Shown here: positions 12,108 to 64,000 of the stretch, one piece after another
Numbering within the stretch: position 1 is the stretch's first letter
Layout: each line of letters opens with the position of its first letter
Source: Eledone cirrhosa
Lineage: Eukaryota
Direction of reading: 5' to 3'
Assembly (NCBI GenBank): GCA_964016885.1
Contig: OZ024741.1
Location: 72,850,001-72,914,000 of the forward strand
DNA: 64,000 bases
Notes under the pieces: model-generated
Told to the model about the DNA's origin: nothing
What the model saw: only the letters and a program-made list of their open reading frames with translations
The model's database searches: none
Position numbers and translations under genes: made by a program

Positions 12108-15100
12108 GCGCGGGGACATAGAAATAATCGGGCTGGATGCCCGATCGCGCAGTTAAACCACTGGGAGTGAAGAACCCCTAGCCCATGTCAGGGTATTCTT
12201 CTAGGAGAAGGCATCTCAGGAAACTGGGTTAACTCCGATATAAAACCTGCGGCTCAGTAGTTACCGATGATGTTGATCTTTTCTTCTTTTCGGGTTATAG
12301 CTACTGTCGCTCAGAGAGTGGGATTGGTTCAGTGCACAGTCTTTCCTCACTTTAAAAATATTCGTCACGCACAGGCATTGCACGAGTGCATTAATAATTA
12401 TTAATAGTGTACTATTATTATTATTATTATTATTATTATTATTATTACTATTATTATTACTTTTTTTTTTTTTTTTTTTTTTTCCAATTCAATGATGTTC
12501 CAGAACAATGTAAACGAGATAATTGCCAATTTGGGTTCTGGAACAAAAAGGATCATTGGCAATAAGGGCAGGGGCCCCAAGTTATCACAACCTGGGCCCG
12601 CCCGTCATCGTGCCATTGTAATAGAGCCAAACAGGGCATTTAGTCTTGGCTGCTGGAACGTACGGACGCTGCTTGACAGGGATTCTTTGGAGCGTCCTGA
12701 ACGAAGGACCGCTCTTGTTGCGAAGGAGCTTCGACGTTACGATCTTGACATCGTGGCTTTGTCTGAGACGAGGTTAGCTGGAGATGGTCATCTTACGGAA
12801 TTTTGTGGAGAATATACATTCTTCTGGAAAGGAAGAGATGAAGGAACCAGAAGAGAGGCTGGGGTAGGATTTGCTGTTAAGACTGTACTGGTGAATAAAT
12901 TAGAAGAATTCCCAGTGGGGATTAGTGAGCGTCTTATGTCCATGAGAGTTCCGCTGGACAAGGGAAGATATGCTACCCTGGTGAGTGTGTATGCTCCAAC
13001 TATGAATTCTGTCGATGAAGAAAAACTGTCCTTTTACCATGCCTTGAAAGGTGTTTTAAGAAATATCCCTCAGGCAGACAAAGTCATCGTGCTTGGTGAC
13101 TTTAATGCTAGAGTGGGTAGGGATTTTAACACATGGAATGTAATCGGAAGGCATGGGGTGGGAAAGTGTAACAGCAATGGTATGCTCTTGCTGCAGATGT
13201 GTGAGGAGCTGGATCTGTGTGTTACCAACACCATGTTCCAACAAAAGAACAAATTCAAGACCACATGGATGCATCCTGCATCTAAGGAATGGCATCTTTT
13301 GGACTACGTCCTAGTCAGGATGCGTGACAGACAGGATGTGCAGTGTGTTCGTGTTCTTCGTGGAGCTGAGTGCTGGACGGACCACCGCCTGGTACGCGCA
13401 AAAGTGAATCTAATCACCAAACGTAAAATCCGGGCTCCTGGTGTTGCCCTGCCCAAAAGATTGAATGCTGCTCGTCTTAAGGATAAAAATGTGAAGAGGA
13501 CATTGGAAGAAGAGATGCAGGCTGCAGATCTTGGTGAGGATTGGCCGACCCTTAAAAAGTCGGTTTATGATGTAGGCAGACGTGTTCTGGGATTGGTGCA
13601 GAGAAAACATCAGGACTGGTTTAATGAGAAAGATGTGCATATAGATGACTTGTTGGCTGATAAGAGGCGCGCTCTGTCACGCTACTTGACGGCAAAACCA
13701 CAGGAGAGGAATACGTTGCATGAGGAGCTCAGGGATGTAAAATCACGTGTTAGGCGGAGTCTTTCTCAGATGAAGGATCAGTGGTGGAGTGAGAAGGCTG
13801 GTGAGATACAAACTGCGTCTGATTGCAATAACACAAAGCTGTTGTACAGTCTCTTGCGTGAGGTTTATGGACCGTCTTCTTCTCTGGTGACACCGATTCG
13901 CAGCAGGGATGGCAAAGAACTTCTTCGTGACTCACAGAGAATTCTACGAAGGTGGCGAGAGCACTTTGATGATCTTTTGAATCAGCCGTCTGTCGTCAGT
14001 GAAGATTTCCTCAATCTCATTCCGGAAAGTCCTGTGAAAGTAGCTCTCGCAGAACCTCCGACACTTGTGGAGGTTGCAGTGGCTATTTCGAAGCTGAACA
14101 GTGGAAGATCTCCAGGTATGGATGGCATACATGCTGAGCTCCTACAATATGGTGGTGAGAGACTCCTGCAACATCTTCACTCTCTGTTTGGAAGGATATG
14201 GGCTAATGAATCCGTGCCTGAGGACTGGAGAGATGCAGTAATGGTGGTCTTGTACAAGGGAAAGGGTAACAGGAATGATTGTGGGAACTACAGAGGTATA
14301 TCATTGCTTTCTGTCGTGGGGAAAGTTTTATGTAGGGTGCTTCTGGACCGTCTGCTGACACACATTGCAGATTGTGTCCTTCCTGAAAGTCAATCTGGTT
14401 TTCGTGTTGGACGCGGCACTACTGATATGATCTTCTCAGCTAGACAGCTCCAGGAGAAGTGCATTGAACAGGGCTTGGATCTGTATCAGGTTTTTGTCGA
14501 TCTGACAAAGGCTTTCGATACTGTCAACAGAGATGCATTATGGAAGGTTCTCCAGAAACTTGGTTGCCCTGATAAGTTCCTTGCTTTAGTTAGGTCTTTC
14601 CATGACGACATGAAGGCTTGGGTTAATGTCGGAGGTAACATGTCGGAGCCTATCTCAGTAAAAAATGGAGTGAAACAGGGGGATATTCCAGCACCGACCC
14701 TGTTTGCCATATACTTTGCAATGGTTTTCTGTATTGCATTCAGGAATTGCGAGCATGGTGTTTACATCCGATATCGAACCTCAGGCAGCATATTTAACAT
14801 CAGGCGCTTTGCTGCGAAGACAAAAGTATTTACATCAGTCATAAGAGACCTCTTGTATGCAGATGATTGCGATCTTGTAGCGCACACAGAGAGTGATATG
14901 CAGCACATTTTGAATGTATTTTCTGACGCTTGCACTGCCCTGGGTTTGACTGTCAGTCTCAAGAAAACCGTCGTCATGTACCAACCTGCACCTGGTAGGC
15001 AGTACACTGAACCAAACATCTATGTGTATGGCAAACGACTTGGAGTGGTTGATCAGTTTGTCTACCTGGGAAGCACTGTCAATCGATACGGCAACCTTGA

Positions 15101-18376: not shown

Positions 18377-18777
18377 ATGTTCTTCTGGTTTTATAATTTC
18401 ACAAAGTTTTACCAATATAGAGAGAGTCGGTTTCTAACATAGACACAAGACTCTCTCTCTCATTGGAATTTACACAACATCAACTAGGTAGATATGTATG
18501 TATGCATGCATGTGTAGATATGGATGTTATTATATGTGTGGATGTGTATGTTTTGAGTTGTATGTGTGGATGTGTATATGCTTTGTATCTGTACATGTGT
18601 ATATGCAGTTATTAGATGCAAAATTTTTTGAATGTTTTACATATTTTTACTGTTCCATTAATGGATTGTACTTGTAGTTTCCTAACTAGTTGTGTTCTTT
18701 CTGTTCCTGTGAAGCCTAGCTTCACAAGATTTGTATTGAGGCAGTTACTAACATATCCCAGTGCCCCAATAATCACA
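18377..18777 (-). mobile_element. 3' end of an RLE-type non-LTR retrotransposon (second RLE family)
   Basis: Near-identical to 37871-38270; translates to VIIGALGYV..CLNTNL.KLGF...LVRKLQVQSINGTVKICK.F; (CATA)n on both sides. Confidence 0.7.
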
Positions 18778-18887
18778 TGTATGTATGTATGTATGTATGT
18801 ATGTATGTATGTATGTATGTATGTATGTATGTATGTATGTATGTATGTATGTATGTATGTATGTATTTGTGTGTATGTATGTATGTT

Positions 18888-19400
18888 CCGGGAGAGATGA
18901 CCCCTTAGCCTTTGTCAAGGCAGAATTCTAGAAGGAAAACTCTGATATAACAGCTGCAACCCTGATGATATCCAATGATGTTGACTTGCTCTTTTTGGTA
19001 AATATCATCTTGGTTAAGAGAGTGGGACTGGCTTTGTGCAGTGCCTTTGCTCACTAAAAAAGCTTCACGGCATAGGCATTGCTTTATATCTGCAGATCTC
19101 TCTGCACTTGTCGTCACATGGTACCATGGGCCCATCACTTTGTGTCAATAATTGTCACAAGTGTAGTGTCTGTACCAGAGTTTTCAAGTCGCTGGCTGGA
19201 CTAAAAAGTCACACTCGTTCAGCACATCGGTAGGGGTTGTCCTACATGGATATAAAGTAGTGGCCGTACTCGAAAACGAGTTGGTAGCCACCATGTATGT
19301 ATGTATGTATGTATGTATGTATGTATGTATGTATGTATGTTTGTATGTATGTATGTATGTATGTATGTATGTATGTATGTATGTATTTGTGTGTATGTAT
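18888..19400 (+). mobile_element. Non-autonomous bipartite RTE derivative (family Y)
   Basis: RTE-like 5'UTR, then last zinc-finger codons (CSVCTRVFKSLAGLKSHTRSAH*, similar to finger 3 of the intact ORF), 3' hairpin and (ATGT)n tail. Confidence 0.85.
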
Positions 19401-35067: not shown

Positions 35068-36152
35068 ATGCTTTGGGAGGGTCATGTTGCCAATAAGAAA
35101 CACACGCACCAGTTTCTTTCACTCCAATTTATTATAAATTAAATTTATAAATTTAAGAATTTATAAATTTCCGGTTGGTTGGTTGGTTCCACAACCGGAC
35201 GGTTGTTCATATATTGTCAAAGTTCTATCGTCACACATCCTGTGACCTCTTCAGTGAGTGGAGATTATTTTCTTTATTTTTGTGCCTCTCCTTTGTTCTG
35301 ACCTACGCCATCTTGTTTTTGTTTGTGTTGTATGCTTAGTTTGCGCATGTGTTACATCCGGGTGTCTGTGCGTGTTTATATTTGTTTATTTATGTGTCTA
35401 TTTACATGTTAGTGGTTGGTTGTTTGTTCTATGTGTGTGTGTGTTTTCATTTTGTCCTTAATTGTAAGTTGTGATGTTGCTATTCCATTCATGTTTTCTA
35501 TTTAATTTTGTTTGGAGTTCATTTATGTTTATTGCCTCTGTGATTTGTCTAAACATTGCGTCTTTTCTGTGTGTAGATTCTATTTTTATTTCATGTTCTC
35601 TAATTTACCCTTATGTTCTATTTTAGCATGTTGGTGGAGTACAGATGATTCTTTTCTATCTTGAAGCTCTCGCCAGTGTTCATTTATCCGTTCTCCTATA
35701 CTACGAGCTGTCTCACCTATGTACACTATATTCTTATCTCTACATTGTCCTTCAGTACATCTTATGCTATATACTACATTTCTAGTTTTACAGTTAATAT
35801 GGGGGCTTAGTTTACAGATTATATATTTCTTATCTATACAGGGATGTCTTTGAAAAGGGTATATATTGCTAATAAGTGTTTTTATGGAGGTACCTGGTCT
35901 TTTTACTATCTTAATATCTTGTATAGGAGCAAATTTTGGAATAGAATAGAAAGAACTAGTAATAAGGTTAATAGAATAAACTCATGGTATGATAGCAATA
36001 AATACCAGAGTGTAATGTTCATCAATACAACCCCTAGAGGTGAATTAGCTTACACATTTAGAAGAGCCCTAGATAAACATAAACTCAATATTAAGATAGT
36101 AGAAAGACCAGGTACCTCCATAAAAACACTTATTAGCAATACATACCCTTTT
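35060..36152 (-). mobile_element. PLE 3' fragment (same family as 46590-48360) with an inverted internal segment
   Basis: 35060-35915 is the reverse complement of about 47510-48360; 35916-36152 is a plus-strand copy of about 47338-47572; CTGAAGA GGTCAC..GTGAC motif at 35225-35254. Confidence 0.9.
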
Positions 36153-36410: not shown

Positions 36411-36983
36411 AGATATATATATATACATACATACATACACGAACACACATTTTACATATAATTGATATATTTATCTACACACATATATAAACACGATGCC
36501 AACACAAACCAATAAATCAAGCTCATTACATTTTAGACTAAAATTCTACACTAAAATTCTGGGACTGTTTCAACAGTTGTCACAATTTACAGCAATATGT
36601 TGGAAATACTTGCATGAGTATGTATGTATGTATGTATGTATGTATGTATGTATGTATGTATGTATGTATGTATGTATGTATGTATGTATGTATGTATGCA
36701 TATACGTATGTATGTCGGGACACTCTTCAGTGCTACTGGTAACATGTAACCCAGTACAACCTGTCGCATGGTCGGGTCGTCGGCAACTAAACCGGCAACC
36801 CCACCAAGTTTACTTGGTGAGGAGGGTCATTTTGGACACCCTGCAGGACAAAAAACAAAACCTGACAAAGGGCGGAAGAACTCATAAGAGTCAACGGCCA
36901 TCCAAAAGTGTGTAAATATGTATATACACATGTACATATGTATGTGTATGTGTATATACATGGGTGCATGTGTATGTATATGG

Positions 36984-37397
36984 GCGGGGACATAGAAATA
37001 GTCGGGCTGGACACCCGATCGCGCGGTTAGACTACTGGGAGTGAAGGACCCCTAGTCTTTGTCAGGGCATTCTTCTAGGAGAAGGCAACTCAGGAAACTG
37101 GGATAGCTCCAATATAAAACCTGCGGCTCAGTAGTTACCGATGATGTTGATCTTTTCTTCTTTTCAGGTTATAGCTACTGTCACTCAGAGAGTGGAATTG
37201 GCTCAGTGCACAGTCTTTCCTCACTTTAAAAAATATCTTCATGCACAGCCATTGCACGATAGAATTAATTAATAATTATTAATAATGTTATATCGTGCAA
37301 TGGCCATACTCGATGACGAGGGGTCAGTCATCATGTATGTATGTATGTATGTATGTATGTATGTATGTATGTATGTATGTATGTATGTATGTATGTA
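36984..37397 (+). mobile_element. Non-autonomous bipartite RTE derivative (family X): 5'UTR fused to 3'UTR
   Basis: 36984-37283 aligns to 12110-12405; 37291-37335 aligns to the 3' end of the full-length element; (ATGT)n tail. Confidence 0.9.
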
Positions 37398-37870
37398 TGT
37401 CAAGGCAGAATTCTAGGAGAAGGAAAACTCTGATATAACATCTGCAACCCTGATGGTATCCAATGATGTTGACTTGTTCTTCTTTTTGGTAAATATCATC
37501 TTGGTTAAGAGAGTGGGACTGGCTTTGTGCAGTGCCTTTGCTCACTATAAAAGCTTCACGGCACAGGCATTGCTTTGTATCTGGAGATCTCTCTGTACTT
37601 GTCATCACATGGTACCAAAGGCAAAGCACTATGTGTCAATAATTGTCACAAGTGTAGTGTCTGTACCAGAGTTTTCAAGTCGCTGGCTGGACTAAAAGGT
37701 CACACTCGTTCAGCGCATCGGTAGGGGTTCTCCTACATGGATATAAAGTAGTGGCCGTACTCGAAAACGAGTTGGCAGCCACCACCATGTATGTATGTAT
37801 GTATGTATGTATGTATGTATGTATGTATGTATGTATGTGTGTATGTATGTATGTGTGTGTATGTATGTAT
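37398..37870 (+). mobile_element. Non-autonomous bipartite RTE derivative (family Y), second copy
   Basis: Aligns to 18913-19295. Confidence 0.85.
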
Positions 37871-39223: not shown

Positions 39224-42200
39224 CGATTTCATTTATTGGCCACAAGGGCCGACATATAGGGGACAATACAAAAGACTGGGACAGTGGGGTTTTACAGAAA
39301 AATCGAGTAAAAATATGAATCACAATAACAAAGTAACAATAAAATTACAAGAAAAAATTCCCCAATAGGGGAGATGACCACCCAGGGTTCGCTCGGGTAG
39401 CCCACCAATCCTGAACGACCCGACGCTTTGGGAGCATCCTGGAAGGGCCCCACCTCTCCTCCTCAATTTTACCTACCTACAGCCGCATGACCAGAGTAGG
39501 CCCACTCACACGGGCCAATCTCGCCACATTCACCCACCTTTCAGCAAATGTACTTGGGGGCAGCACTTTTCTCTCCATCCTCACCTTCCTTTCCAAGTGA
39601 AACTTGAAAAAGTTGATGAGGGATTGGCCGAAGAGAAAAGTGTCTGTCTTCAGTCCTTCCAACCTCGTCCACCATACAACCTCTTTCGCTACTGCCACCA
39701 GACAGAGGAAAATTGCCTGCTCTTCCTGGCCAAAAGAAGACGGCGGGTCGATCTTCACTATGGACTCGGCCGATAGCCGGATCCGTTCTACACGCGACAA
39801 CAGCTGTTCAACATAACTCCACAAGTCCGTAATGCACGGACACTGGACGAATGCGTGCAGAACGGTTTCGTCGCTCTGCGCGCATCTCGGGCAGGTCCGT
39901 CTGACAGCACTTCTGTGCCTGTAGAATTTATCTCGAACCGGCAGTGCCCCCCGGTAGCACTGCCAAGCGAGGGATTTTTTGAAATTATTCATCGTCCCGG
40001 CTCGAAAGTCCTCCGGTACAGACTAGTTAGTTCGACTTCGTTGACTCCCAGAGCCTCTCCGAGTGCGTCGTCGCACTTGCCCACCACTAATCCTCTATAG
40101 AACTCAAGAGTGGAAGTTCCACTGACCGCATTGCCCGCCTGGTAGAGGGCAGTGAGTGCCTGGCAACATTCCAGATGCCAGTCACCCAGTCTCGGTCTCT
40201 TCATAACCCAGGACTGCAGCTCAGTCAAAGAAACGAGCTGCGGAAAGGCCCGTCTGACAAACGGCGACCACACCTGTTCACCGTTTAGGCAGAATATCTG
40301 GCGATGCCGCAGCCTCAGCGCGTGCCTGCGCATCATTATCCACGGCATGCATAGCCCTCCACGTAGAGGGTGCTGGCAGCAGATGGACCGCCTCACCAGC
40401 TAAACCTGACACCTCCACAAGAATTTGAAGAGGAGCCGCTCCAAGATGGCGAGGCACGAACGGGGGCAAGGTACGACGGTCAGACGGTAGTAGATGACGG
40501 AGGCGATGTACGCGTTCGCCACCTCCACCCGACCTTTCAGTGATAGCTTCATCCCAGCCCATTTCTGGGTGAGACTGGATACCCTGCCTGTCACCTCGTC
40601 CCAATTCTTATCCACCTGGAGGTCTGGCCCGAACCAAACCCCTAGCAACTTTACCGGTCCGTCCCTCCAGCGCCTAACGACGCTGTTGGACGGCATGGAC
40701 TTGCCTCTCCAGGTGCCGAGTTGCAAGCCCACCGACTTTTCCGGGTTAAGTTTTGCTTCAGTCAACCTTTCATATTCCTCCAATAAGTTGCCGACCACCT
40801 CGATTTCTGAGGTGTCCGACACCATCACGGTGATGTCGTCCGCATAAGCCGACACAGCCTTTCCGCGACCCGGTTCAAGCGGGATGCCCTGCAACAGCTC
40901 CAGCTTCCGCAGTAAAGGCTCGAGATTCTATACGTACAGAAGTGAGGAGAGAGGGCACCCTTGATGAACCGATCAGGGGACCTGAAACGGTTCCGAGAGG
41001 TGGCCACTAATTTTGACCATCGAGCAGGTGCTGCTGTGTATTGCAGCGATCCAGCTTTTGAAGACGGGGCCGAAGCCAGCCGCCTTGAGGACAGCCTGCA
41101 GGTACCGATGGTCGACCCTATCGTATGCTTTCGATTGATCTAAATTGATCAGAGCCCCACCGAATCCAGGTTTACACCCTACCCTCTCTATGATGTATCG
41201 CATTAGGTGGAGTTGTCGTGTATGGACCTGGTTGGGATTGCGCAAGTTTGCGCCTCCCCAACCAAATCCCCGACGACAAGCGCCAACCTCTTCGCTAACA
41301 CCCTGGCCAAAATCTTAAACTATGTGTTGAGCAGAGTTATGGGCCTGAATTTGTCTAATGTGTCCCTCATGTTCTCGTCTTTCCTTATCAGCGTCACTAC
41401 GCCCCGCCTCACAGAACTGGGAATACTCCCGTTTTGCTGCCAGTTGCAGTAGAGGGCTTCGAGGAGATTGGAGAACAAGTCTGGCATATTTACGTAAAGC
41501 TCGTAGGGCAGACCATCCAAACCGGGTGACTTGCGCCTTATGCAGCCGACAAAGGCATCCTGAATCTCGGCTGAAGTAATTGGCTTTTCGCAGCGCCCAG
41601 CGTCAGCCGTCAAGAGTTGCGGCAAGCCATCGAGGTAGGGACTGAAGTCCGCCATCATCTCTGACCCGCCACTTCCCCCGAATAACCGAGCAAAATGTTG
41701 GGGAAAGGCCTCACACATCCGCTTGGAATCGCTTATCTCGTATCCGTCTCGGTCCGTCAAAGACCGAATCGTGGTTTTATTACCACGCTGCGTCTCTGCC
41801 ACGCGGGCCCATCGAACAGCTTTGGTTCCCTCGTTTCTCAGAGCACGCGCCTTAACTCTGACAATGCAACCTTCGTGTTTTGCATTGAAGAAATGCTCTA
41901 ATGCCATTCTCGCTGCTGGCACGTCAGTTGCAATGCCACTACCAATAGCCTCGTCTAACTTATCTACCAACTCCCCCTCCTTTCTATTTTTCTCTAACGC
42001 TACTTCTTTGCTAAACTCTATCGACATTACTCTAATCTCTCTTTTGAGAGCCCCCCACCATCAATTGTTGACGACTCCCCTTGTCAACTTTTTCTTAACT
42101 AAATTGTTGACCTGGTCCCTGTAAGCCTTACGTGCCGGAAATGACATGTTTAGCTTCCAGTAACCAGGTCCTAATCTACGCATCTTATCTAGGTCGACCA

Positions 42201-43760
42201 TACAGATCACAAACTTGTTATCTGAATAGGGGACTGTTTCAAAACGTGGACAGCTTACACTATTTATGTCTATTTTCCTAATGAATATCCTGTCTATATA
42301 CGATCTAGATGACCCTATGCGGTTAGCCCAGGTCCACACTGGCGCATTAGGGAAATCTAGTCGGTACCTGTCAGTTGTAGGTGGTTTTGCCGGTGCTGGT
42401 GTTGGTTGTGGTCCGCGCCCCGGCGTCGGCAGCAGTGGAGCCTTTCGACCCCTTGCCTCTTTCAGCAGTTGAGGGCAGAAGGCTCGCAAATGGGTTTTTT
42501 CCCCACAAACAAAACACTGCGGCCTTTTGCCTTCGGTCATAATGTGAATGACCGTCCCATTCTGAAGGCGGATGTGGTCCGGGATTGTCTTCACATTCTC
42601 GGGCCTGATCTGGAGAAGGATCTCCAGGTCAACCCCGGACCAATCCTCTCTGGCCGTTCTGGTCACTTCTATAGGGACGGTATCCGTCCCCTCCACAATC
42701 ACACATCCCAGAAGTCACCACATGTCAAGTCCTGGTGGGATTCTGGGCCGTTCTTTTTCCCATGTGGGAGGGGTACATTATGACCTTGCTGGTTTTGCAA
42801 GGAGTCATAGCGTGTTTCATAGCGAGGGCTTCTGACTTGAACAACACCGAAATAGTGCCGTACTGTCTGCCCCTCTCTATGTATTCGGTGTATTCTCTGA
42901 TGCACCTCAGCGCGACTTCGACATCTTCTTGTGGGATTAAAGCTGCCCTTTTGGTTTGTGCTGAGATGCATCTATAATGCACCGTTCTGCGCTCCACTGT
43001 CTCAATAGCTTCTACCGGGACAGTTAAGTTGGCCCAGGTTTGCTCTTGCTTGATGAGCTTCCATGCCTGGGCCAACTTTTCATCTTTGTTTGAGAGGTCC
43101 ATGTTGAAGCATGGCCTCTTTTTTGCTGCTGCCGCAGCGAAAGTGTTCTTGTTTTCGTTGGGGGTGTTGTTGTCGTTGTCGTTGTTCTTGTTGGTGTTGT
43201 TGTTATCACTGTCGCTGTTATCATTGTTGTCTTTGTTGCCACCGTTGTTCTCAGTGCAGTTGGTATTGCTGCTGTTGGTGTTGTCGCTATTTGTTTTCAT
43301 GTTAGTGGTGTTGATATTGTTGTTGTATTTGTTTTTTGTTTTTTTTTGTTATCTGTATTTTCGTTGTCGCTGTTACTGTCATTTTTTTTCAAAATTAGAG
43401 TTCTCATTGGTATCATTGGTGTCTTTGTTTACATTGTTTGTGGTGGTGTTTGTGTTATCAATTTGTGTTAATTTCTCTGTAGCGCTTCTCTCAACTTCTA
43501 CGTCGTTGTGGCACGACAGCACACAAATCGCTGGGGGGTGTGGCTCAGCCATGTTTTTTTTTTCTCCGTAAATGTTTTTAACATGTAAAAAAAAAGTTCA
43601 AATATTTGGGCCAAAAGGCCCAAATATTATACTTTCTCCATCACAGGGCAAAGTCTAAGGGCTTATATCCCTTACACAACAAGAAATATTTAACAACAAA
43701 TAATTTTAACAGGCAAATAAAGCGACTTACTGTGAGCGAGCAAAATACGTCCGCTTAGAC
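39224..43760 (-). mobile_element. Tx1/L1-clade LINE with both ends present but internally deleted and frameshifted
   Basis: ORF1 from about 43552 with zinc knuckle CFVCGEKTHLRAFC; ORF2 RT (KSPGLDGLP, LDQSKAYDRV, AYADD) and CPRC..ET..HA..QC; AATAAA near the 3' end; 18-bp flanking duplication CAATAATAATAATAATAA. Confidence 0.9.
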
Positions 43761-45757: not shown

Positions 45758-46449
45758 GGATACTATTTATATTTTAAACCATAAATAGGGAAGGTCAGTA
45801 ATTTATTACTAACTTATTACCAGTAAGATAAATAGCTCAAAGTAAGAACATCAGTTGTTCTACAGAGCAGTTATATAGAATTCACAAGAATCAAAGCTAT
45901 GTCCAAGCATTTATTCACTTACAATTGTTTCTTCCAAACCTAGGCTTGGAGTCTTCTGAGCAATTTTTAATGCTTGTACATATAATTGACTTCCCAGTCG
46001 ACGCAAGAGACATACAGATACATATATATATATATATTGATGTACAGTGTGGAGCGGCATATATTATACTATACTATATTTGTATAGTAATTCAAATTCA
46101 AATCAAAATTAAAATTAAAATACATGCAACAGATAACACAGATAATGCAGGAGAATAGTTCAATAATCAGATCTTTATATAAGGGACTCAATTGAGGCAA
46201 CTTATAATGTATGTTGGAACAATGAATTTAGTTATGAGAATCAGCTAGTTACCTCCCCTTACCCATTAGCTCCCCTTAGTTACATACCTACTTCCGGATA
46301 TTAAACCGCTGTAAATTTTCGCATATAAATATGGATTATATATCACTGAGCTTCAATACGTTACAATCCTTTACTACAACAAACATTCAATACAAATACA
46401 TCGTAACATATGTGATGAATGTGAAAACTATAACTTCCTCTTTCTGGAT

Positions 46450-47967
46450 GTGAAAATGGTGGTGGATGTGAAAACTATAACTTTCTTTTTCTGCACACAT
46501 ACTAATTTGATCTGTACAAAAAATCGCTGGCCCCTACCGCATGTGCAATCATTTTCTTCAGTTCATCGTGAACCACGAAAAACCACGAAACCACGAAACC
46601 ACGATGAACTGAAGAAAATGATTGCACATACGGTAGGGGCCAGCATAAAAATAACCCTTAAGGAACATATGTTCAAATTTAATGGAAAAACATATGCCCA
46701 AGAGGAAGGAGCAGCCATTGGTGTTAGCATTGCAGGCGACATAGCTAACTTATTCATGGTATGGTGGGACAGTAGACTTAAACTTAAACTTAAAGAACAA
46801 TTAGAAGACCCCTTAACCCTGATAATGTACTCCCGCTACGTAGATGATATAAACATCGTAGTTAAGACACCCCCACTAGAGAACAGTCAGGAACTAGAGA
46901 AAAACACAATGGAAAGCATCCAGCAAATAGCAAACTCCATCCACCAGAGCATTAGAGTTACTATAGACTACCCAAGTAAACACCCCAACCATCGATTACC
47001 TGTACTAGACACAGAGCTCTGGTTAGATACCATTAACAACAAAAAACAAATCCTCCATTCCCATTATGCCAAACCCATGACTTCCAAACATCTGATCCAC
47101 CGAAACTCGGCCGTTTCGGACCATACCAAAATCAACATACTGATTGCGGATTTGGTACGGGTGATGAGAAATGTGTCCCGCATGTGCAACCCCGAAGAAC
47201 TAGAGAGACACATACAACACTTCATCCACCGTATGCAGTTCTCTGGCTACAATCAGAGAGATAAAATCAGAGTGTATAGAGGAGCCAGAACCAAATGGGA
47301 AAAAATGGTAAATAATGACATAAATGGCACCTGCCCCTTGTATAGGAGCAAATTTTGGAATAGAATAGAAAGAACTAGGAACAAGGCTAATAGAATAAAC
47401 TCATGGTATGATAGCAATAAATACCAGAGTGTAATGTTCATCGATACAACCTCTAGAGGTGAATTAGCTTACAAATTTAGAAGGGCCCTAAATAAACATA
47501 AACTCAATATTAAGATAGTAGAAAGACCAGGTACCTCCGTAAAAACACTTATTAGCAAGACATACCCTTTTCAAAGACCCTCATGTATAGATAAGAAATG
47601 TATAACCTGTAAAATAAGCCCCCATATTAACTGTAAAACTAGAAATGTAGTGTATAGCATAAGATGTACTGAAGGACAATGTAGAGACAAAAATATAGTG
47701 TACATAGGTGAGACAGTTCGTAGTGTAGGGGAACGGATAAATGAACACTGGCGAGACCTTCAAGATAATAAAGAATCATCTGTACTCTACCAACATGCTA
47801 AAATAGAACACAAGGGTAAATTAGAGAACATAGAAATAAAAATAGAATCTACACACAGAAAAGACGCAATGTTTAGACAAATTACAGAGGCAATAAACAT
47901 AAAAGAATTACAACCAAAATTAAATAGAAAATATGAGTGGAACAGCAACATCACAACTTACAATTAA
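46450..47967 (+). CDS. 5'-truncated PLE RT + GIY-YIG ORF (homology begins about 46590)
   Basis: QEEGAAIG, YSRYVDDI, LPVLD, Cys-rich linker, VVYSIRC...YIGET.RS.GER..EH; open for about 455 codons. Confidence 0.85.
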   Translation: MKMVVDVKTITFFFCTHTNLICTKNRWPLPHVQSFSSVHREPRKTTKPRNHDELKKMIAHTVGASIKITLKEHMFKFNGKTYAQEEGAAIGVSIAGDIANLFMVWWDSRLKLKLKEQLEDPLTLIMYSRYVDDINIVVKTPPLENSQELEKNTMESIQQIANSIHQSIRVTIDYPSKHPNHRLPVLDTELWLDTINNKKQILHSHYAKPMTSKHLIHRNSAVSDHTKINILIADLVRVMRNVSRMCNPEELERHIQHFIHRMQFSGYNQRDKIRVYRGARTKWEKMVNNDINGTCPLYRSKFWNRIERTRNKANRINSWYDSNKYQSVMFIDTTSRGELAYKFRRALNKHKLNIKIVERPGTSVKTLISKTYPFQRPSCIDKKCITCKISPHINCKTRNVVYSIRCTEGQCRDKNIVYIGETVRSVGERINEHWRDLQDNKESSVLYQHAKIEHKGKLENIEIKIESTHRKDAMFRQITEAINIKELQPKLNRKYEWNSNITTYN

Positions 47968-48359
47968 GGACAAAATGAAAACACACACACACATAGAACA
48001 AACAACCAACCAGTAACATGTAAATAAACAAATAAATAAATGAACATAAACACACACAGACACCCGGATGTGGCGCATGCGCAGACTGAGCACACAACAC
48101 ACACACAGAAACAAAATGGCGTAGGACAGAACAAAGGAGAGGCACAGAAACAAAGAAAGGAATCCCCAGTTATTGAAGAGGTCACAGAGTGTGTGACGAA
48201 AGAACTATGACTTAAACAACTATCTGGTTGTGGAACCAACCAACCAACCAACCAGAAATTTATAAATTTATAAATTTATTATAAATTTATTATAATAAAT
48301 TGAAGTGAAAGCAACTGGTGCGTGTGTTTCTTATTGGCAACATGACCCTCCCAAAGTAT

Positions 48360-60231: not shown

Positions 60232-63200
60232 CAGAGGGGGAGATTTTGAAATGAGCACATTTTGCGTGCCAGAAGATTTGCTTCTGGTCCGAATGTCACT
60301 CAATTCCTTCAAAGAAATACGAGACAGCTTTCCTCGGAACGTGGGAACCCCGAATGTGAAACCCACATCAAGACTTTTAAAGGGGTTCCCAACCATGGAG
60401 GTCGAACCACCCGACCTTCACAAGACCCCGGGAGGTAAGTAAGCCTTCCCTCTCTCTCTTAACTTACCAATATGGCCATATTAAGAGTAGGAAGTTTAAA
60501 TGTTCATGGCCTGGGGTCACTCTGGAAGCAGGGTCGCCTGCTCAACGACCTCAGGTCGCTGGAAATGGATGTGATTGCTGTCAGCGAGACCAGAATTTCC
60601 GACACGCGCGCACTAGCCCCCATTTTCGACGACTATCAGATCTTCGCATCTGTTAGCAGACCGGGAATGGGGAGTGGGGTGGCAGTTCTGTTTAGGAAAG
60701 GACTGGATCTCGAGGTAAGATCGATCTTCGGGGACCCGGACGGTAAGTTGGTGGTCTTGGATGTGAGCAGTAGCGAAGGTGGTACCTTTAGACTGCTGGC
60801 CGGCTACGTCCCTACAGGGGCCGGACGACCGGACTTCTTTAGGCGCCTGGAGACCTTTCTGGGTACGTCTCGCCCTTTACTGTTAGCGAGGGACTGGAAT
60901 GGCATCTTAGACGCACGCTGGGATTGTGTGGGAGTAGCCGATAGGAGCGGGGAGTGCAAAAGCCTCAAGCACCTACTCAGCCAGTTCCAACTGTCTGACA
61001 GGTATCGACTAGATTTCCCCAATGTGCCAGTATGGACATGGACCAACCGAATAGGGTCATCTAGATCGTATATAGACAGGATCTTCATTAGGAAAATAGA
61101 TAGAAATAGTATGGGCTGCCCACTTTTTCAAACGGTCGCCTATTCAGATCACAAATGTGTGATCTGTACGGTCGACCTAGATAAAACGCGTAGGTTAAGA
61201 CCAGGTTACTGGAAGCTGAGCATGTCATTTCCGGCACGTAAGGCTTACAGGGACCGAGTAAACAATTTAGTTAAGCAAAGGTTGACAGGGGGGATCATCA
61301 ACAACAGATGGTGGGGGGGGGGGGGGGCTCCCAAACGAGAGATTAGAGTAACTTCGATAGAATTCAGCAAAGAACTAGCGTGAGAGAAAAATAGAAAGGC
61401 GGGGGAGCTGGTAGATAAGTTAGACGAGGCTATTTGTAGCGGCATTGCAACTGAAGTGCTAGCGGCGAGAATGGCATTAGACCATTTCTTCAATGCGAAA
61501 CACGAAGGTTGCATTGTCAGAGCTAAGGCGCGTGCGCTGAGAAACGAGGGAACCAAAGCTGTTCGATGGGCCCGCGTGGCGGAGGCGCAGCGTGGTAATA
61601 AAACCACAATTCGGTCTTTGGCGGACCGAGACGGACACGAGATAAGCGATTCCAAGCCGATGTGTGAAGCCTTTTGCCAGCACTTTGCTCGGTTGTTCGG
61701 GGAGAGTGGCGAGTCAGAGAGAGTAGCGGATTTCAGTCCCTACCTTGACGGCTTGCCGCGCATCTCGACGGTCGACGCTGAGCTCTGCGAAATGCCGAGT
61801 ACTTCAGCCGAAATTCAGGACGCCCTTGTCGGCTGCATAAGGCGCAAGTCACCCGGTTTGGATGGCCTGCCCCACGAGCTTTACGTAAATATGCCAGACT
61901 TGTTCTCCGAACTCCTCGAAGCATTTTACTGCAACTGGCAGCAGAATGGGAGTATTCCCAGTTCTGTGAGCAGAGGAGTGGTGACGCTGATAAGGAAAGA
62001 CGAGAACAAGAGGGATACATTACACAAATTCAGGCCCATAACTGTGCTCAACACAGAGTTTAAGATTTTGGCCAAGGTGTTAGCAAAGAGATTGGCGCTT
62101 GTCGTCGAGGATTTGGTTGGGGATGCGCAAACTTGCGCAATCCCAGCCAGGTTCGTACACGACAATCTCCACCTCATGCGATATATAATAGAGAGGGTAG
62201 GGTGTAAACCTGGCTTCGGTGGGGCACTGATCAATTTAGATCAATCGAAAGCATTCGATAGGGTCGACCATCGGTATTTGGAGTTTGTCCTCAAAGCAGC
62301 TGGCTTCGGCCCTGTCTTCAGAAGTTGCATCGCTACAATGCACAGCGGCACACGCTCGGTGGTCAAGGTTAATGGCCACCTCTCGGAACCATTTCGGCTC
62401 TCCCGATCGGTCCGTCAAGGGTGCCCTCTCTCTTCCCTTCTGTACGTATTGACTCTCGAGCCTTTACTGCAGAAGCTGGAGCTGTTGCAGGGCATCCCGC
62501 TCGAACAGGGACGTGGAAAGGCGGTGTCGGCTTATGCGGACGACATCACCGTGATTGTGTCGAACACCTCAGAAATCGAAGTGGTCGGCACCTTATTGAA
62601 GGAATATGAAAAGTTGACAGGAGCCAAACTTAACCCGGAAAAGTCGGTGGGCTTGCAGCTCGGAACCTGGAGAGACAAGCCCATGCCGTCCAACAGCGTC
62701 GTTAGGCGCTGGAGGGACGGACCGGTAAAGTTGCTCGAGGTTTGGTTCGGACCAGACCTCCAGGTGGAAAAGAATTGGGACGAGGTAACGAGCAGAGTAG
62801 CCAGACTCACCCAAAAATGGGCTGGAAGGAAGCTATCACTGAAAGGTCGGGCGGATGTGGCAAATACGTACATCGCGTCCGTCATCTACTACCGCCTGAC
62901 CGTCGTGCCTTGACCCGTCCGCGCCTCGTCAAGATGGAACGGATCCTCTTCAAATTCTTGTGGAGAGGACAAGTTCCGTTGGTGAGGCGGTCCATCTGCT
63001 GCCAGCACCCTCTACGCGGAGGGCTGGGCATGCCGTGGCTAATGATGCTCAGACATGCGTTGAGGCTGCAACATCTCCAGATATTCTGCCTCAACGGTGA
63101 ACAGGTGTGGTCGCCGTTTATCAGACGGGCCTTTCCACAGCTCATTTCTTTGACTGAGATGCATTCCTGGGTTAAGAAGAGACCGAGACTGGGTGACTGA

Positions 63201-64000
63201 CACCTGGAATGTTGCCAGGCACTCACTGCCCTCTATCAAGCGGGCAATGCGATCAGTGGAACTTCCACTCTCGAGTTCTATAGAGGATTAGTGGTGGGCA
63301 AGTGCGATGACGCACTCGGAGAAGCTTTGGGCCTCGACGAAGTCGAACTGACCAGTCTGTACCGGAGGACTTTTGAGCCGGGGACGATGGACAATTTCCA
63401 GAAATCCCTCGCTTGGCAATGCTACCGGGGGGCACTGCCGGTTCGGGATAAACTCTACAGGCACGAAAGTTTTGTCAGACGGACCTGCCCAAGATGCGCA
63501 CAGAACGACGAAACCGTTCTGCACGCACTTGTCCAATGTCCGTGCATTACTGACTTGTGGAGTTATGTCGAACAGCTACTGTCGCGTGTGGAACGAATCC
63601 GGCTATCGGCCGAGTCCATAGTGAAGATCGATCCACCGCCTTCCTTAGGTCAGGAAGAGCAGGAAATTTCCCTCTGTCTGGTGGCAGTTGCGAAAGAGGT
63701 TATATGGTGGACGAGGTTGGAAGGACTGAAGACAGACACTTTTCTCTTCGGCCAATCCCTCATCAACTTCTTCAAGTTTCACCTGGAAAGGAAGGTGAGG
63801 GTGGAGAGAGAAGTGCTGCCCCCCAGTACATTTGCTAAAAGGTGGGTGAATGTGGCGAGAAAGGCTCGTGTGAATGGGCCTACTCTGACCATGCGCCTAT
63901 AGGCTAGCTAACTTGAGGAGAAGGGTGCTCTCCCTGGGTGCCTTAGAAGCGCAGGGTGGTTCAGGATCGGTGGGATACCCGAGTCACCCCAGGGTCGTCC
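60232..64000 (+). mobile_element. 5'-truncated Tx1/L1-clade LINE (ORF1 tail + disrupted ORF2 60472-63902)
   Basis: APE SLNVHGL, VSETR, DWN, YIDRIF, SDH; RT QGCPLS, YADD; CCHC motif; stops or frameshifts at about 61381, 62911 and 63198; same family as 39224-43760; runs off the window. Confidence 0.9.

Follow-up and report, generated by a model that had tools for sequence, protein, structure and literature searches.

The window analysed here, a stretch of 64,000 nucleotides from Eledone cirrhosa (contig OZ024741.1), contains a non-LTR retrotransposon that is close to full length, along with three short relatives that are non-coding. The former, which we call Family X, is an autonomous RTE-type LINE whose body (12108..16540, + strand) comprises part of the 5' UTR, an ORF and a 3' UTR rich in microsatellites, with an (ATGT)n tail behind it. 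The single ORF (12492..16037, + strand; 1181 aa) encodes an AP endonuclease and then a reverse transcriptase (Pfam PF03372 and PF00078), with no ORF1, and ends in C2H2-like zinc-finger motifs that are seen in the translation and annotated in homologues. The 3' UTR, 500 nt and mostly microsatellite, exceeds those of relatives in length, and the element finishes, as is typical of the RTE clade, with a terminal hairpin and then a short tandem repeat. This architecture, together with the likeness by eye of the 5' UTR block to those of named RTEs, points to membership of that clade; the RT tree used below contains unnamed loci only. RTE-2_OV of Octopus vulgaris is likewise described as having one ORF for endonuclease, RT and a C2H2 finger, and a 3' UTR rich in microsatellites (PMC9115989), although its ORF is 1109 aa long, the likeness is one of description, and the portion of that paper available gives no UTR structure. 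Across the 3.0 Gb genome searched, the RT segment is identical in 142 of 142 scored matches of X, which marks the family as young.

Upstream of the body lies an inverted piece of the X 5' UTR (11916..12079, - strand), which has a reverse-strand match in all six other full-length copies compared, so that the window copy is a case of 5' inversion plus truncation; we take it to resemble the products of twin priming. An (ATGT)n run precedes the inverted piece. Elsewhere the window contains a 54-nt tandem array of ~54 copies at 96–98% identity (7364-10394), a 151-nt inverted repeat whose arms are 99% complementary and 68 nt apart (5759-6128), and two broken copies of another endonuclease-RT element, 90% alike and in opposite orientation (39456-42374, - strand; 60463-63923, + strand). 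Two further inverted copies (35320-35917, + strand; 46315-48105, - strand) carry an RT and then a GIY-YIG-like C-terminus, motifs by which we presume them to be Penelope-like.

The three short relatives are all on the + strand: a bipartite non-autonomous copy of Family X including its 5' head (36717..37335) and two bipartite copies of a second family, Y (18886..19293 and 37398..37790), both of which are 5'-truncated pieces of a ~618-nt unit. A first look at the genome gave 3662 candidates for X and 4167 for Y, and a profile of the conserved 5' block, searched in flanking DNA, added two more short families, Z and W. Short X is a bipartite derivative in the usual sense, a part of the 5' UTR joined to the 3' end with no ORF and in many copies, and its identity to full-length X is 89% across 305 nt and 90% across the final 48 nt. 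The sequence-only reading had its transcript run from 36984 to 37335; the start is misplaced, since in 20 of 30 loci the 5' head immediately precedes that part and the unit begins near 36717. The head (36717-36910) is common to Y and Z in diverged form and occurs in none of 20 full-length X copies within the range first fetched, six copies having been examined further upstream. Full-length X carries a different, longer upstream UTR than the X, Y and Z derivatives, an apparent case of 5' switching. Hairpins in the shared head suggest a ribozyme, without a match in Rfam. In Y the stretch that encoded the last zinc finger of the parent survives (19141-19232) and resembles the end of the X ORF; no autonomous parent of Y came to light. 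Head-to-tail arrangements of X, Y and Z copies, inserted in one another's (ATGT)n tails, are frequent (for example 37335-37790, and two loci elsewhere, L169 and L170).

All four window elements share one anatomy. In full-length X a predicted pseudoknot (stem P1, 12317-12322 with 12346-12351; stem P2, 12332-12335 with 12369-12372; + strand) is followed by a 5' arm (12376..12385, + strand), and far downstream a 3' arm (16497..16506, + strand) abuts the 3'-terminal hairpin (16507..16529, + strand), which has a 3-bp base, an internal loop, a 4-bp upper stem and a 4-nt loop. The corresponding elements in short X are P1 at 37191-96/37220-25, P2 at 37206-09/37243-46, arms at 37250-61/37291-302 and a hairpin at 37303-25; in the first Y copy, P1 at 19021-26/19050-55, P2 at 19036-39/19070-73, arms at 19077-91/19248-62 and a hairpin at 19263-85; and in the second, P1 at 37512-17/37541-46, P2 at 37527-30/37561-64, arms at 37568-82/37739-53 and a hairpin at 37754-76.

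It was proposed from the window sequence that the arm after the 5' block pairs with the arm before the 3' hairpin, and that this pairing persists while its sequence differs between families. At its coordinates, the full-length X helix does consist of nine Watson-Crick pairs and one G.U, and the Y helix (19077-19091/19248-19262) of 12 Watson-Crick pairs and three G.U. The second Y copy (37568-37582/37739-37753) replaces A-U by G.U at pair 10, as claimed, and keeps the pairing; the same variant is present in five of 30 Y loci. For short X, 14 perfect pairs had been described (37248-37261/37291-37304). All 14 are Watson-Crick in the window copy, but the outer two depend on a rare variant, carried by two of 14 plus-strand loci inspected, and they run into the base of the 3' hairpin, with which they would compete; the helix of the family is therefore 12 bp. 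Pairing extends to genomic copies of all four families, with 352 of 360 cells paired in short X (30 loci), 448 of 450 in Y, 143 of 156 in Z and 107 of 120 in W, the arms of the last two again being different in sequence. A further decayed bipartite family, met by accident (L196:890-1480), has paired arms and two alternative 3' tails. Of 20 full-length X copies, the range fetched includes both arms in 16, the 5' arm alone in three and the 3' arm alone in one, and the arms pair in all 16; every arm found is identical to that of the window, which makes the window copy typical and is not evidence of selection on pairing.

Could such complementarity be a chance inheritance from a common ancestor, with no selection on pairing? 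Within full-length X alone there are three ten-nucleotide UTR-UTR pairings of equal quality, two of them AT-rich and overlapping, so matches of this kind do arise by chance in one element. What leads us to reject chance is not the quality of a single-copy match; it is the fixed position and family-specific pairing of the arms in 19 families. These were assembled with a protein alignment of 41 sequences, by which 80 metagenome and seven genome-collection loci were fetched. Of these 87 loci, 36 extend to the start of the ORF; the block is present at E < 0.01 in 14, and nine combine it with the 3' hairpin, eight once a duplicate (L081) is dropped. These eight metagenome loci, with X, Y, Z and W, make a first set of 12 families; a second set of seven has a diverged block anchored by a pseudoknot finder blind to the helix, and 16 of the 19 families are autonomous. 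Loci were excluded where the 5' part was too short (L064, L068, L070 and L073, the last nearly identical to L075) or the 3' end missing or cut (L079, L090, L112, L116, L131, L134, L137, L138 and L147). The anchor hairpin was not found in L088, L118, L119, L125, L139, L143 and L144, all of which save L088 sit on long, distant branches of the RT tree. RTE-like elements were met in seven contigs of prokaryotic assemblies (L141-L147), some with long flanking GT repeats, and are probably eukaryotic contamination.

For each family, the 24 nt after the 5' anchor and the 22 nt before the hairpin were taken, and all combinations of 5' and 3' windows were folded. In the first 12 families, own arms average -16.0 kcal/mol against -7.4 for mismatched arms, a difference reached by none of 200,000 permutations, and the own partner ranks first in 11 of 12 rows and in as many columns. 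The second set reaches 1/5040 permutations by itself, and over all 19 families the values are -15.5 and -7.1 kcal/mol, with the own partner best in 16 (0/200,000). The 16 autonomous elements alone, whose arms lie 3.1–4.1 kb apart, give -15.5 against -7.4 kcal/mol (0/200,000). The signal is absent when the windows are shifted by 30 nt (P 0.70, 0.14 and 0.33). In a gapless register, picked by the same rule for own and mismatched pairs, 8.2 of ten positions are paired with the own partner and 5.4 with others. Two of the 19 families, L078 and L087, both from the second set, fail the anchored test, L087 having a candidate helix by eye at another position.

Between the first 12 families the arms share only 30% identity, while positions 2-10 each show three or four Watson-Crick pair types, and the sister lineages L062 and L069 of the RT tree differ by three double changes in the helix. 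The family-specific complementarity spans 7–16 bp. Covariation across families, which the sequence-only reading had named as the check on its proposal, is thus present in both the anchored and the gapless tests, and pairing, whose absence would have counted against that proposal, holds across copies. The elements sampled share with 5'-3' cyclisation elements their complementary terminal regions with compensatory change. Permutation ignores the relatedness of the families, a point in favor of shared ancestry, but the families occupy seven separate branches of the RT tree, and the own-partner pairing of such divergent arms, with shifted windows null, leaves the chance explanation largely refuted and very improbable. 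We are nearly certain that the pairing is real and selected.

Several features of the sampling bear on these figures. The eight first-set blocks that seeded the profile were inspected by eye before testing; L075, L077, L080, Z and W joined after the seeding, and all pair. The pseudoknot finder was written after five of the second-set loci had been inspected, and it is permissive, with hits in eight of 28 ORF windows; in just four of 12 first-set families does its top hit fall 2 nt or less from the anchor.

Energy alone would not have singled out the helix. Without anchors, a 22-nt arm of any family has a partner site worth about -17 kcal/mol somewhere in 600 nt of UTR from a different family, and the own UTR is only slightly better (-18.5 against -16.7 kcal/mol; P = 0.003, 302/100,000), with the best site coinciding with the anchored one in four of eight block families. 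A fold of the 4.4-kb full-length X RNA lacks the helix, its 5' arm pairing with a GT repeat, although little weight attaches to a minimum-free-energy fold of this length that leaves pseudoknots out. In folded slices the helix is predicted in 30 of 30 short X, 12 of 12 W, five of 12 Z and one of 30 Y loci, and in two of three whole Y units; the programs used cannot form the adjacent pseudoknot. Scores are much the same for the sense and the antisense duplex (-15.5 and -15.2), so that the strand of the RNA is not revealed by G.U bias in the helix.

For the 5' structure that the window sequence had suggested, we supply a probable identity: in an alignment of 16 copies of the conserved block, the block is predicted to be a covarying pseudoknot, in which a seven-pair stem, P1, is crossed by a five-pair stem, P2. 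Of 190 cells, 88% are paired, and double changes occur at six of 12 pairs. None of 500 shuffles reaches the observed paired fraction or covariation score, and 20 of 500 reach the count of pair types. Slid registers score lower, a comparison biased in favor of the pseudoknot because it was drawn from the sequences on which it was tested. P2 has its own family specificity (4.1 own against 2.8 other; 0/100,000). The non-Watson-Crick cells of P1 are mostly G.U (11, against six unpaired), departures that fit a sense RNA. The 3' hairpin, in 17 sequences, has 89% of cells paired and 13 double-change cells (0/500 shuffles), and its upper stem covaries, as expected of the stem-loop of a stringent LINE. 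P2 ends 3–4 nt before the 5' arm, and the 3' arm stops at the first base of the terminal hairpin, a spacing that would allow the three parts to stack into one compact unit. Rfam gave no match at gathering score in the window and no ribozyme, and further Rfam scans returned sub-threshold matches only, mostly to microsatellite or generic hairpins. None of 11 PDB matches is an RTE protein.

The helix can also be made out, by visual inspection alone, in sequences published for BovB, the AviRTE SINEs, crocodilians, turtles and squid, as far as these are given in the portions of the sources available. RTE-3_AMi and RTE-1_PSi have a perfect 9 bp between the same places, with one A-U to U-A change, and a helix of 10 bp in BovB and of 15/16 in RTE1_LA joins the 5' UTR and the 3' end (PMC5786205 supplement); in the latter two the 5' block differs, though it too is drawable as crossed stems. 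The 5' block described here resembles, by eye, those of RTE-3_AMi, RTE-2_Croc and AviRTE. Among short elements, MonoRep87B shows 11 bp closing a 4-nt loop, IdioSINE2 7 bp and an X-like hairpin, HaSE2_DP 6 bp with crossed stems, and ManaSINE1 7 bp around a 4-nt loop (PMC4844689, file 5). SINEs with a tRNA or 5S head in place of the 5' end retain block, arms and hairpin. In the sequences available, the helix is not clear by eye in HaSE1 and HaSE3 and only partial in SINE2-2_ACar, and SepiaSINE, the Sepioth-SINEs and OegopSINE have other 3' ends. The BovB-type motif has 0 matches in the E. cirrhosa genome, so examples of that type come from by-eye reading only. Viral contigs yielded no relative by protein and three unrelated pattern matches.

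Bov-A/Bov-tA, Mar-1, AfroSINE, WALLSI, the AviRTE SINEs and IdioSINE2 have the same build as the derivatives described here, an internal piece of 5' UTR plus the 3' end (PMC5786205; PMC4844689). Kojima, in 2018, noted that few clades give rise to derivatives of this kind, "for unknown reasons", and suggested functions related to transcription (PMC5786205). The link to bipartite derivatives drawn from the window sequence finds support, in that several published ones end, by eye, a few bases beyond the arms. That the RNA ends are joined via this helix is upheld as far as complementarity and covariation go; its formation in vivo and recognition by the RT are what we infer.

The explanation that we favor, with somewhat better than even confidence, is a split recognition module, in which the family-specific helix joins the 5' pseudoknot to the 3' hairpin and the protein needs the joined module to take an RNA as template. 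The helix would form in the cell, probably aided by protein or by stacking on neighboring stems; the ORF protein would bind the pseudoknot-helix-hairpin module, and this binding would be why successful derivatives and SINEs are bipartite. Pairing in autonomous elements indicates that the helix is not a product of internal deletion, and compensatory change in those elements points to selection on pairing across kilobases. Short derivatives retain pseudoknot, helix and hairpin together, and the module is thus likely, on this model, to be needed for mobilization.

The helix might instead serve the autonomous element at some other step, its derivatives being bipartite merely because paired ends favor deletion of the looped-out middle. 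The breaks of short X and several SINEs near the arms would suit this proposal, but breakpoints vary (29 nt between arms in short X and 156 in Y; 100 nt from anchor to anchor in Z and 188 in W), and short X pairs better than full-length X, with 12 Watson-Crick pairs against nine and one G.U, which suggests continued selection in the derivative. We regard deletion bias as improbable. A role in translation or stability has more to recommend it, albeit still unlikely: the helix could close into a loop a transcript that lacks both cap and poly(A), as happens in some RNA viruses, the elements do end in microsatellites instead of poly(A), and some RTE RNAs are cleaved by ribozymes and yet translated (PMC8501958). 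Non-coding derivatives, however, keep the helix, some of them trimmed to a 4-nt loop, which weighs on translation and less on stability; its retention there, including in SINEs with a replaced 5' end, argues for a role in mobilization rather than translation.

Within mobilization, a selected but late-acting helix, holding the 5' UTR near the insertion site for cDNA completion, template jump or second-strand synthesis, would explain covariation and non-coding retention equally well, and the 5'-3' pairing of Ty1 does act in reverse transcription (PMC1976439). The positions of the arms speak against it. The RT would unwind the 3' arm in its first 40–50 nt, long before reaching the 5' end, and the 5' arm is not terminal but hundreds of bases inside the UTR. 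We consider a late role unlikely, if marginally less so than one in translation or stability. Copying of the 3' arm within the first 50 nt implies that the helix acts only before or at priming, and it is this point that favors the split module.

Parts of this have precedent. As here, the distant ends of a replicating RNA base-pair in Ty1, HIV-1 and flaviviruses, and in Ty1 the pairing is required for initiation of reverse transcription (PMC1976439); those are, however, LTR elements or viruses, with tRNA priming or an RdRp, whereas the present elements are non-LTR and use target-primed reverse transcription. The stringent LINEs ZfL2-1/2 and UnaL2 and plant RTE/Au-SINE likewise have a terminal hairpin before a microsatellite tail (PMC4176376; PMC6007223), but here the hairpin is extended by a helix with a 5' UTR strand, beside a predicted pseudoknot. 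End-to-end pairing and recognition of a 3' hairpin are thus each already known, as far as the available parts of these sources go.

In R2, 5' RNA and 3' UTR both contact the protein and both ends take part in integration, the RNA ends being bound separately; we know of no conserved direct 5'-3' helix in that element.

In the portions available, the papers on bipartite SINEs (Kojima 2018, PMC5786205; Suh 2016, PMC4844689) describe no 5'-3' pairing or pseudoknot, nor was a description of this helix or pseudoknot found in what was accessible of the other literature searched, which included PMC6007223, PMC8501958, PMC13295347, PMC7245038, PMC5135761 and PMC13708176. An earlier description in subscription papers, supplements or the patents on RTE-1_MD UTR optimization is possible but, we think, rather doubtful. 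Plant RTEs reportedly exchange their 5' UTRs freely and conserve a 3' block (10.1101/2022.11.04.512097, in the part available), which limits any claim to animal lineages at most. That the split module, with an RT that accepts only end-matched RNAs, is used by animal RTEs at large, BovB, AviRTE and the families of cephalopods and insects included, we hold to be a tentative proposition, slightly short of an even chance.

If it is true, end matching would act as a check for full-length, same-family transcripts and would explain in structural terms the repeated bipartite build of RTE-dependent SINEs, the covarying helix and predicted pseudoknot being a concrete answer to the question left open in the available text of PMC5786205. 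With this helix, a non-LTR retrotransposon would possess a 5'-3' cyclisation element, and the module would define a minimal template of ~110–130 nt. Since RTE-1_MD already serves for gene insertion, on templates that include both cognate UTRs (PMC13708176, as far as available), the module could also bear on template design.
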